Below are positions 63,469 through 63,667 of a stretch of 64,000 bases of DNA, piece by piece. The DNA comes from Candidatus Micrarchaeota archaeon (GTDB lineage Archaea > Micrarchaeota > Micrarchaeia > Anstonellales > Anstonellaceae). A program made the position numbers and the translations under genes. Position 1 is the first letter of the stretch. Every line of letters begins with the position of its first letter. The notes under the pieces were generated by a model. The model did not search any database, had not been told where the DNA came from, and saw nothing but the letters and a program-made list of their open reading frames with translations. The stretch is taken from positions 27,727-91,726 of the forward strand of contig JAOAJY010000003.1 in assembly GCA_026413965.1 (NCBI GenBank), written 5' to 3'.

Positions 63469-63557
63469 TGCGACCGCCGGGATTTCCATCATGCGATTTT
63501 GAACCCGGCCCGCGAGATTGGCAATCTCGAATCCTAACCAGGCTAGACTACGGTCGC
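63469..63557 (-). tRNA. tRNA-Gly(GCC) with a 15-nt T-loop insert
   Basis: Reverse-complement fold: acceptor GCGACCG/CGGTCGC; D arm GTCT-AGCCTGGTTA-GGAT; anticodon arm CGAGA-TTGCCAA-TCTCG; T stem CCGGG/CCCGG enclosing 22 nt (63482-63503); discriminator A. Confidence 0.75.
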
Positions 63558-63593
63558 AGCCTACAACAAATAATGAAATGAGTTTAAAAGAAG

Positions 63594-63667
63594 TGCGGCT
63601 GCCGGGATTTGAACCCGGGTCGCGAGATTGGGAATCTCAAATCCTAACCAGGCTAGACTACAGCCGC
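63594..63667 (-). tRNA. tRNA-Gly(CCC), uninterrupted
   Basis: Reverse-complement fold: acceptor GCGGCTG/CAGCCGC; D arm GTCT-AGCCTGGTTA-GGAT; anticodon arm TGAGA-TTCCCAA-TCTCG; T arm CCGGG-TTCAAAT-CCCGG; discriminator A. 74 nt. Confidence 0.9.

Follow-up and report, generated by a model that had tools for sequence, protein, structure and literature searches.

The only tRNA-Gly(GCC) gene found in this Micrarchaeota genome carries a 15-nt insert in its T loop that is very probably a genuine archaeal bulge-helix-bulge intron at position 59/60, best read as the shrunken remnant of a long 59/60 intron, perhaps homogenised with the copy in the tRNA-Gly(UCC) gene. The anatomy of the gene, the foldability of its insert, the enzymes with conserved active-site residues and the comparative series of related genes were observed directly, and from them we infer the cleavage and ligation of the precursor and the evolutionary path of the intron. 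The gene lies in the window, by which we mean the whole 64,000-nt stretch of DNA analysed here. The window belongs to a 771-kb genome, 87% complete, whose GlmS protein finds its best matches in Micrarchaeota MAGs (69% identity). The glycine tRNA features of the window are as follows.

63469-63557, minus strand: tRNA-Gly(GCC) gene, 89 nt including the intron.
63520-63522, minus strand: GCC anticodon of tRNA-Gly(GCC).
63483-63497, minus strand: 15-nt intron AUCGCAUGAUGGAAA of tRNA-Gly(GCC) at T-loop position 59/60, with a strict hBHBh' fold.
63498-63508, minus strand: CCGGG (5' strand of the T stem) and the T-loop exon part UUCAAA of tRNA-Gly(GCC), positions 49-59.
63477-63482, minus strand: U60 and CCCGG (3' strand of the T stem) of tRNA-Gly(GCC).
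63583-63589, minus strand: TTTTAAA, TATA-box-like, in the spacer, 26-32 nt upstream of the 5' end of tRNA-Gly(GCC).
63594-63667, minus strand: tRNA-Gly(CCC), intronless, 74 nt, with a 7-nt T loop (ARAGORN; Rfam RF00005, 61.8 bits).
63558-63593: spacer between tRNA-Gly(CCC) and tRNA-Gly(GCC), 36 nt.
45399-45501, minus strand: tRNA-Gly(UCC), with a 29-nt intron at 59/60 (45413-45441).

The T stem of Gly(GCC), CCGGG/CCCGG, closes a 22-nt loop, TTCAAAATCGCATGATGGAAAT (in RNA form UUCAAAAUCGCAUGAUGGAAAU), compared with the usual 7 nt, and its other three arms (acceptor, D and anticodon) are normal. With its insert in place the gene is missed by ARAGORN and yields only a partial Rfam match (19 bits); once the 15 nt are deleted in silico, ARAGORN calls a canonical 74-nt tRNA-Gly(gcc). 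In Gly(UCC) the T loop is interrupted at the same point by a 29-nt insert, TCAAGGCGCATGTTTCGGGAAAGTGGAAA, and the T arm CCGGG-TTCAAAT-CCCGG is common to all three glycine isoacceptors, which hold inserts of 0 (CCC), 15 (GCC) and 29 nt (UCC). An initial annotation of this DNA is thereby borne out in its description of the locus: the minus-strand sequence does contain a 22-nt T loop enlarged by 15 nt; the Gly(CCC) gene 36 nt away does combine the same T arm with a clean 7-nt loop, as sequence, ARAGORN and Rfam agree; the three isoacceptors do present three intron states; and the Gly(GCC) insert is indeed intron-like and located at the site of the UCC insert. No second Gly(GCC) gene was found in the 87%-complete assembly, and this level of completeness means that a further, intronless GCC gene may exist. 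The TTTTAAA box suggests that Gly(GCC) may be transcribed from its own promoter, and TTTAAA/TTTTAAA-like motifs are present approximately 30 nt upstream of many tRNA genes in this genome.

In the Gly(GCC) precursor, the 5-bp T stem (helix h) would run on into a 4-bp central helix in which exon positions U54-A57 (UUCA) pair with intron UGGA (4/4 pairs, one of them G-U). Two 3-nt bulges, AAA (A58-A59-A(i1)) and AAU (A(i14)-A(i15)-U60), would flank this helix on opposite strands, and a short 2-bp UC/GA helix (h') with a GCAU loop would close the motif. This arrangement of two 3-nt bulges separated by a 4-bp helix is that of the strict hBHBh' class, and the fact that it can be drawn answers affirmatively a question raised in the initial annotation, namely whether 15 nt can still present two 3-nt bulges to the endonuclease. 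Archaeal splicing proceeds by cleavage after the second nucleotide of each bulge, and cuts at these points leave UUCAAAU in Gly(GCC). Because of the run of A residues, intron positions from 56/57 to 58/59 are equally allowed by the sequence alone, and it is the bulge-helix-bulge register that places the intron at 59/60. A strict model requiring 4/4 central pairs and at least two inner pairs can be built from only 0.26% of shuffled 15-mers. In the T-arm fragment of Gly(GCC) the bulge-helix-bulge fold has a free energy of -7.6 kcal/mol, compared with -9.9 kcal/mol for the minimum free energy (MFE) structure; it thus lies 2.3 kcal/mol above the MFE and accounts for ~4% of the ensemble. The corresponding fold of the other short Gly introns examined lies 0.3-3.8 kcal/mol above their own MFE. 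Since the bulge-helix-bulge fold is not the MFE structure, its capture by the enzyme would be required.

The 29-nt intron of Gly(UCC) has a canonical UUCA/UGGA central helix and AAU 3' bulge, and the location of its 5' site inside an internal loop makes it an intron of the relaxed type. A metagenomic Gly(GCC) gene (L195) carries at the same site an unrelated 15-nt intron, AAAGAAAUUUGAAAA, with an identical layout of 1+2+4+2+4+2 nt. This recurrence makes 15 nt seem the practical minimum for the strict design, and nothing shorter appears able to hold both a tetraloop and a 2-bp inner helix.

The enzymes relevant to the removal of such an intron are encoded at the following loci, where G000 designates this genome.

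L131:1180-2502, minus strand: EndA of the three-unit epsilon2 type, 440 aa, matching PDB 4fz2.
G000:C26:19770-21071: RtcB ligase (PF01139, 590 bits).
G000:C11:130301-130543 and L132:1462-1953, minus strand: second EndA-like open reading frame, 163 aa (PF01974, 26 bits).

EndA matches the epsilon2 endonuclease of ARMAN-2 (PDB 4fz2) over its full length (E = 6e-130), and its conserved motifs RLYFPG, HSKH, SVKKTF and GSYK align with the catalytic Tyr/His/Lys and the lineage-specific loop Tyr-Lys of the ARMAN-2 enzyme, where both the catalytic residues and the ARMAN-specific loop pair have been named (PMC12397907). The three-unit epsilon2-type EndA of this genome would be expected to cut after the second nucleotide of each bulge, and RtcB would then join A59 to U60, restoring the loop UUCAAAU. 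The 163-aa EndA-like open reading frame shows a weak match to the PF01974 catalytic domain (26 bits, just below the cut-off), and among PDB entries it best matches the N-terminal portion of EndA from Archaeoglobus.

The presence of a complete splicing apparatus (EndA and RtcB) weighs against the possibility that the insert is not removed, in which case Gly(GCC) would be either a pseudogene or a tRNA with an enlarged T loop. We consider this very improbable. Splicing is read here from sequence and the bulge-helix-bulge fold is not the MFE structure, both of which leave some room for such a reading. Against it, this is the sole Gly(GCC) gene found, and GGC and GGU codons need Gly(GCC); all of its other arms are intact; the insert fits an endonuclease substrate far better than chance (0.26% of shuffles); and a spliceable insert has been kept at this site in the orthologs of many species. 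A 22-nt T loop would, furthermore, disrupt the conserved T54-A58 pair and the contacts between the T loop and the D loop.

Inserts of this kind are common in the genome. A scan for stem complementarity, in which a T stem and an acceptor stem were sought around an enlarged T loop and ARAGORN was then run after in-silico removal of the insert, identified T-loop inserts, 13-87 nt long, in ~20 tRNA genes, a figure that includes a few uncertain anticodon calls and one possibly false locus (C11:85119). The insert lengths are 13, 14, 14, 15, 15, 18, 21, 22, 26, 29, 32, 35 (uncertain), 41, 42, 43, 44, 57, 73, 76 and 87 nt, and many of these genes also carry a 37/38 intron. The Gly(GCC) intron thus has counterparts elsewhere in the genome, some of them shorter, and it is among the few of these T-loop inserts with a perfect strict motif. 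Two tRNA genes on the plus strand of the window (33810-33962 and 33975-34132), each combining a 37/38 intron with a T-loop insert (42 and 44 nt), are missed by both ARAGORN and Rfam; in genomes of this type, roughly half of the tRNA genes escape standard tRNA finders. The tRNA-Trp(CCA) gene of the window (25668-25775, plus strand) has a ~35-nt 37/38 intron that contains the palindrome CUGCGCAUGCGCGCAG.

Glycine tRNA genes were parsed in 60 relatives of G000, and congener loci (L002, L007, L033, L035-L038, L042-L049) were compared with the Gly(GCC) gene at 63469-63557 of the window. This comparison of orthologous loci, which had been proposed in the initial annotation as a check, reveals that the Gly(GCC) 59/60 site ranges from empty to ~175 nt within a single genus, with inserts of 0, 15 (G000), 18, 19, 45, 63, 76, 78, 80, 81, 83, 110, 121 and ~175 nt. 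The Gly(GCC) inserts of a second genus of the family measure 96-97 nt, and the other sampled genera have none. By exon identity, the closest relatives are G016 (98%) and G009 (97%), and their orthologous GCC sites hold T-loop introns of more than 116 nt (G016, cut off by the contig end) and ~175 nt (G009). It is because these nearest relatives carry long introns at the orthologous site that the mini-intron is read as a reduced remnant. Most congeners also possess in Gly(GCC) a conserved 30-40-nt 37/38 intron (...GCGGAATTGGCCGCA.AAA), and its absence from G000, G009 and G016 means that the canonical intron was lost in this subclade and the T-loop intron kept.

No exact relatives of the G000 Gly exons turned up in a metagenome scan, and a broader metagenome scan returned 27 loci, none of them close to G000, which serve as independent examples. 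Many of the metagenomic Gly(GCC) genes whose T loop is clean (L186, L189, L191, L192, L196, L200-L204, L208 and L209) have foreign sequence in place of the 5' acceptor strand and the D arm (e.g. ...TATCGGTTTGGCGGGCACTAGGAC), a pattern suggestive of D-arm introns, or of split genes, in other lineages of the Micrarchaeota.

The collected Gly T-loop introns, 31 in total, have a strongly kept 3' end. Central pairing is 4/4 in 24 of them, the terminal AAU is present in 29, and the four bases that precede it are UGAA (21 introns), UGGA (3) or UGAC (4), with 24 of the 31 ending in UG(A/G)A-AAU. Their interiors belong to several unrelated families despite this shared end, and the 4/4 central pairing persists through the one-sided change from UGAA to UGGA. 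UGRA pairs with U54-A57, and AAU supplies the 3' bulge together with U60, so that a terminal TGGAAAT is largely dictated by splicing geometry.

This bears directly on the relation between the two intron-bearing Gly genes of the window. The initial annotation had regarded the 15-mer as a deletion derivative of the Gly(UCC) intron, on the grounds that the two share CGCATG and a terminal TGGAAAT and differ as if ~14 internal nt had been lost at once. Both strings are present in both inserts. The UCC insert can be divided into the blocks UCAAGG / CGCAUG / UUUCGGGAAAG / UGGAAA, and the GCC insert into AU / CGCAUG / A / UGGAAA. Aligning the two takes a 4-nt and a 10-nt gap as well as substitutions, which does not conform to a single internal loss of ~14 nt. 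We also rejected TGGAAAT as evidence of common descent, since it is a splice-site consensus found in 24 of the 31 introns with unrelated interiors. The alignment of the whole 15-mer is better than that of shuffled sequences (P = 0.014), and with the splice-constrained 3' hexamer fixed the free 5' part gives P = 0.12-0.17. The hexamer CGCAUG itself is only moderately unlikely to be shared by chance (P = 0.008 when sequences are shuffled and 0.024 when 9-mers are drawn at random from the genome), so that the comparison with shuffled controls, on which the annotation had made its proposal depend, speaks moderately for the shared hexamer and leaves the alignment of the free part without significance. 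CGCAUG is also present in the Trp intron and in two other tRNA genes, and it was considered as a general motif of the introns of this genome; this idea was dropped because the structural contexts differ and GCATGC-type words are enriched genome-wide (1060 occurrences of GCATGC against ~376 expected under uniform base use, a ~2.8-fold over-representation).

Further evidence comes from the position of the shared sequence and from related genomes. In both G000 Gly introns CGCAUG forms the closing pair and tetraloop of the apical hairpin, and among the ~20 T-loop inserts of the genome this C-GCAU-G cap is found only in the GCC and UCC introns. These two introns likewise account for two of the three instances of the rare UGGA variant among the 31 Gly T-loop introns. 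The GCC and UCC introns of a genome match one another at 76/76 positions in G022, at 116/116 up to both contig ends in G016 and at 69/70 in G014, and less closely in G010 (41/44) and G009 (116/138, 84%). The introns differ between these sister genomes, and the GCC and UCC exons of each differ well outside the shared T arm. Matching GCC/UCC introns in five sister genomes indicate that copying or gene conversion between Gly paralogs is common in the genus.

It is nevertheless conceivable, and we give this possibility appreciable though minor weight, that no specific relationship links the two G000 Gly introns, the 15-mer being a minimal sequence fitted to the endonuclease and its likeness to the UCC intron the product of splice constraint and chance. 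The UGRA-AAU end accompanies any interior in 24 of the 31 Gly T-loop introns, the alignment is not significant once the 3' end is fixed (P = 0.12-0.17), the metagenomic gene L195 holds an unrelated 15-nt intron of the same architecture, GCATG-type words are enriched genome-wide, and the GCC and UCC introns are unlike each other in G012, G018 and G004. Speaking for a relationship instead are the hexamer CGCAUG, which caps the hairpin of both introns and is absent from the remaining T-loop inserts of this genome, the occurrence in both of the rare UGGA (3/31), and the GCC and UCC paralogs with matching introns in the five sister genomes.

On balance, we somewhat favour the view that both G000 Gly introns arose by reduction of long introns and that the two are probably related. 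The idea of a deletion derivative accordingly survives in part, through UGGA, the CGCAUG cap and the copies in sister genomes, and fails in its reliance on TGGAAAT and on a single deletion. The 15-mer would most likely be what is left of a long and rapidly changing intron found at 59/60 in the Gly tRNA genes of the genus, with a probable kinship to the 29-nt Gly(UCC) intron established by copying or gene conversion between identical T arms. Specific descent by deletion from the present UCC intron is less favoured than such a reduced remnant, and the parent, the direction and the order of events are unreadable from 15 nt.

The long Gly introns of the relatives have a repetitive component. A hairpin module with the consensus CCCTAGGGGG-loop-CCCCCTRAGGG-YTCACCCCC is present in those of G009, G016, G003, G005, G015, G008, G004, G027 and G031. 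The repeat is multi-copy in G009, G016 and G003, where it is at times tandem and contigs break within it, and in G009 it occupies the T loops of the GCC, UCC and CCC Gly genes and of a fourth tRNA gene. No Rfam family matched it at a permissive threshold. The G000 copies, of ~110 nt, read TCCCTAGGGGG-20 nt-CCCCCTRAGGGCTCACCCCC...GGGGG, include an internal direct repeat and lie outside the window, at the following coordinates of G000.

C21:11894-12011, minus strand: repeat copy.
C21:17562-17679, minus strand: repeat copy.
C21:25448-25563, plus strand: repeat copy.
C5:8435-8536, plus strand: repeat copy.
C24:21529-21574, minus strand: repeat copy.
C23:10608-10658, plus strand: repeat copy.

In G000 the repeat begins one base past the discriminator of five tRNA genes and lies within the 37/38 intron of a sixth, and variants of its outer stem (CCA/TGG, ACC/GGT) preserve pairing. 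Its occurrence outside introns, at times in tandem and directly behind tRNA 3' ends, makes it plausible that the element is an insertion. This opens the opposite route, from short to long, in which the 15-mer is an ancestral, primordial minimal intron and the long introns of the relatives arose by later insertion of repeats; the multi-copy hairpin element inside the long introns of G009, G016, G003, G005, G015, G027 and G031 speaks for such a route. We regard it as unlikely. The long introns do not display the interior of the 15-mer on either side of the element, and the element-bearing state extends across two genera and over both GCC and UCC genes, which would require many independent insertions.

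A second association between structured elements and the 59/60 site is seen in other families of the order, where intronless Gly(GCC) genes are followed by one to three trailer units, each consisting of an ~85-nt element and an exact copy of tRNA positions 60-73. At the loci below, one to three tandem units of this kind, with an element of ~85-100 nt and the copied piece TCCCGG...CGCA, follow Gly(GCC) genes that are either intronless or intron-bearing.

L012 (G042:C1:115437-118509), positions 1501-1771: trailer units.
L009 (G050): trailer units.
L030 (G033): trailer units.
L042 (G011): trailer units.
L016 (G052): trailer units.

Because positions 60-73 are what is copied, the duplicated piece begins exactly at the 59/60 intron site, in an att-like manner. 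The 3' hairpin of the trailer unit resembles one family of T-loop introns at P = 0.0005-0.015 in several pairs, other pairs being non-significant with values of up to 0.4; this likeness was assessed by local alignment with shuffles only, and its support is modest. We tentatively propose, as a possibility of limited probability, that the Gly 59/60 site of the genus is a place where a mobile structured repeat lands and is exchanged, and that its introns began as small integrative or repeat elements that target tRNA genes, then decayed until only a minimal spliceable core was left, such as the 15-mer. If true, this would provide a concrete route by which archaeal tRNA introns arrive. It has a precedent in the model of tRNA intron gain by mobile-element integration put forward for Caldiarchaeum subterraneum (Sugahara et al. 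2012, PMC3293823). The Gly(GCC) trailer units of other families of the order, with their duplication of positions 60-73, fit this integration model, and a link between them and the birth of introns may be hypothesised; the present case differs in that no recombinase gene is linked here and the similarity between unit and intron is modest (P = 0.0005-0.4).

The closest documented counterpart is ARMAN-2 (Candidatus Micrarchaeum acidiphilum), whose epsilon2 EndA cleaves in vitro a 13-nt intron at 59/60 of pre-tRNA-Cys(GCA) (Fujishima et al. 2011, PMC3239211) and has been solved structurally (4fz2, 9w2k; PMC3488258, PMC12397907). The two systems share phylum, enzyme type, 59/60 position, tiny intron size and an abundance of disrupted tRNA genes. 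The host there is tRNA-Cys and the intron of the relaxed hBH type, whereas the intron described here resides in tRNA-Gly(GCC), is of the strict hBHBh' type and is known from sequence. In view of the in vitro cleavage of the 13-nt ARMAN-2 intron at 59/60, the Gly(GCC) intron is an ordinary one for its lineage. Non-canonical bulge-helix-bulge introns and intron transposition are also described for the Thermoproteales (Sugahara 2008; Fujishima 2010, as related in PMC4090602 and bioRxiv 10.64898/2026.10.13.758758). According to these secondary accounts, introns there are likewise located outside 37/38, and near-identical introns in different tRNA genes of one genome point to copying between genes. 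Within the scope of the same accounts, the Thermoproteales differ in phylum and in their endonuclease, which is (alpha-beta)2 rather than epsilon2. In the Micrarchaeota genus, copying is seen mainly between Gly isoacceptors whose T arms are identical, and gene conversion would therefore account for it equally well.

On its own, the 15-nt intron contributes little, since tiny 59/60 introns and the corresponding enzyme are already documented in Micrarchaeota. The 59/60 site is, however, unusually changeable among the relatives of this archaeon, with one orthologous site varying from 0 to ~175 nt within a genus. How such introns arrive, spread and shrink is a question that a 2026 census of Asgard tRNA introns left open (bioRxiv 10.64898/2026.10.13.758758). 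The combination of a variable site, introns identical between paralogs and a repeat shared with tRNA trailers makes the Gly genes of this genus a compact natural system in which the arrival, spread and shrinkage of protein-spliced tRNA introns may be followed.
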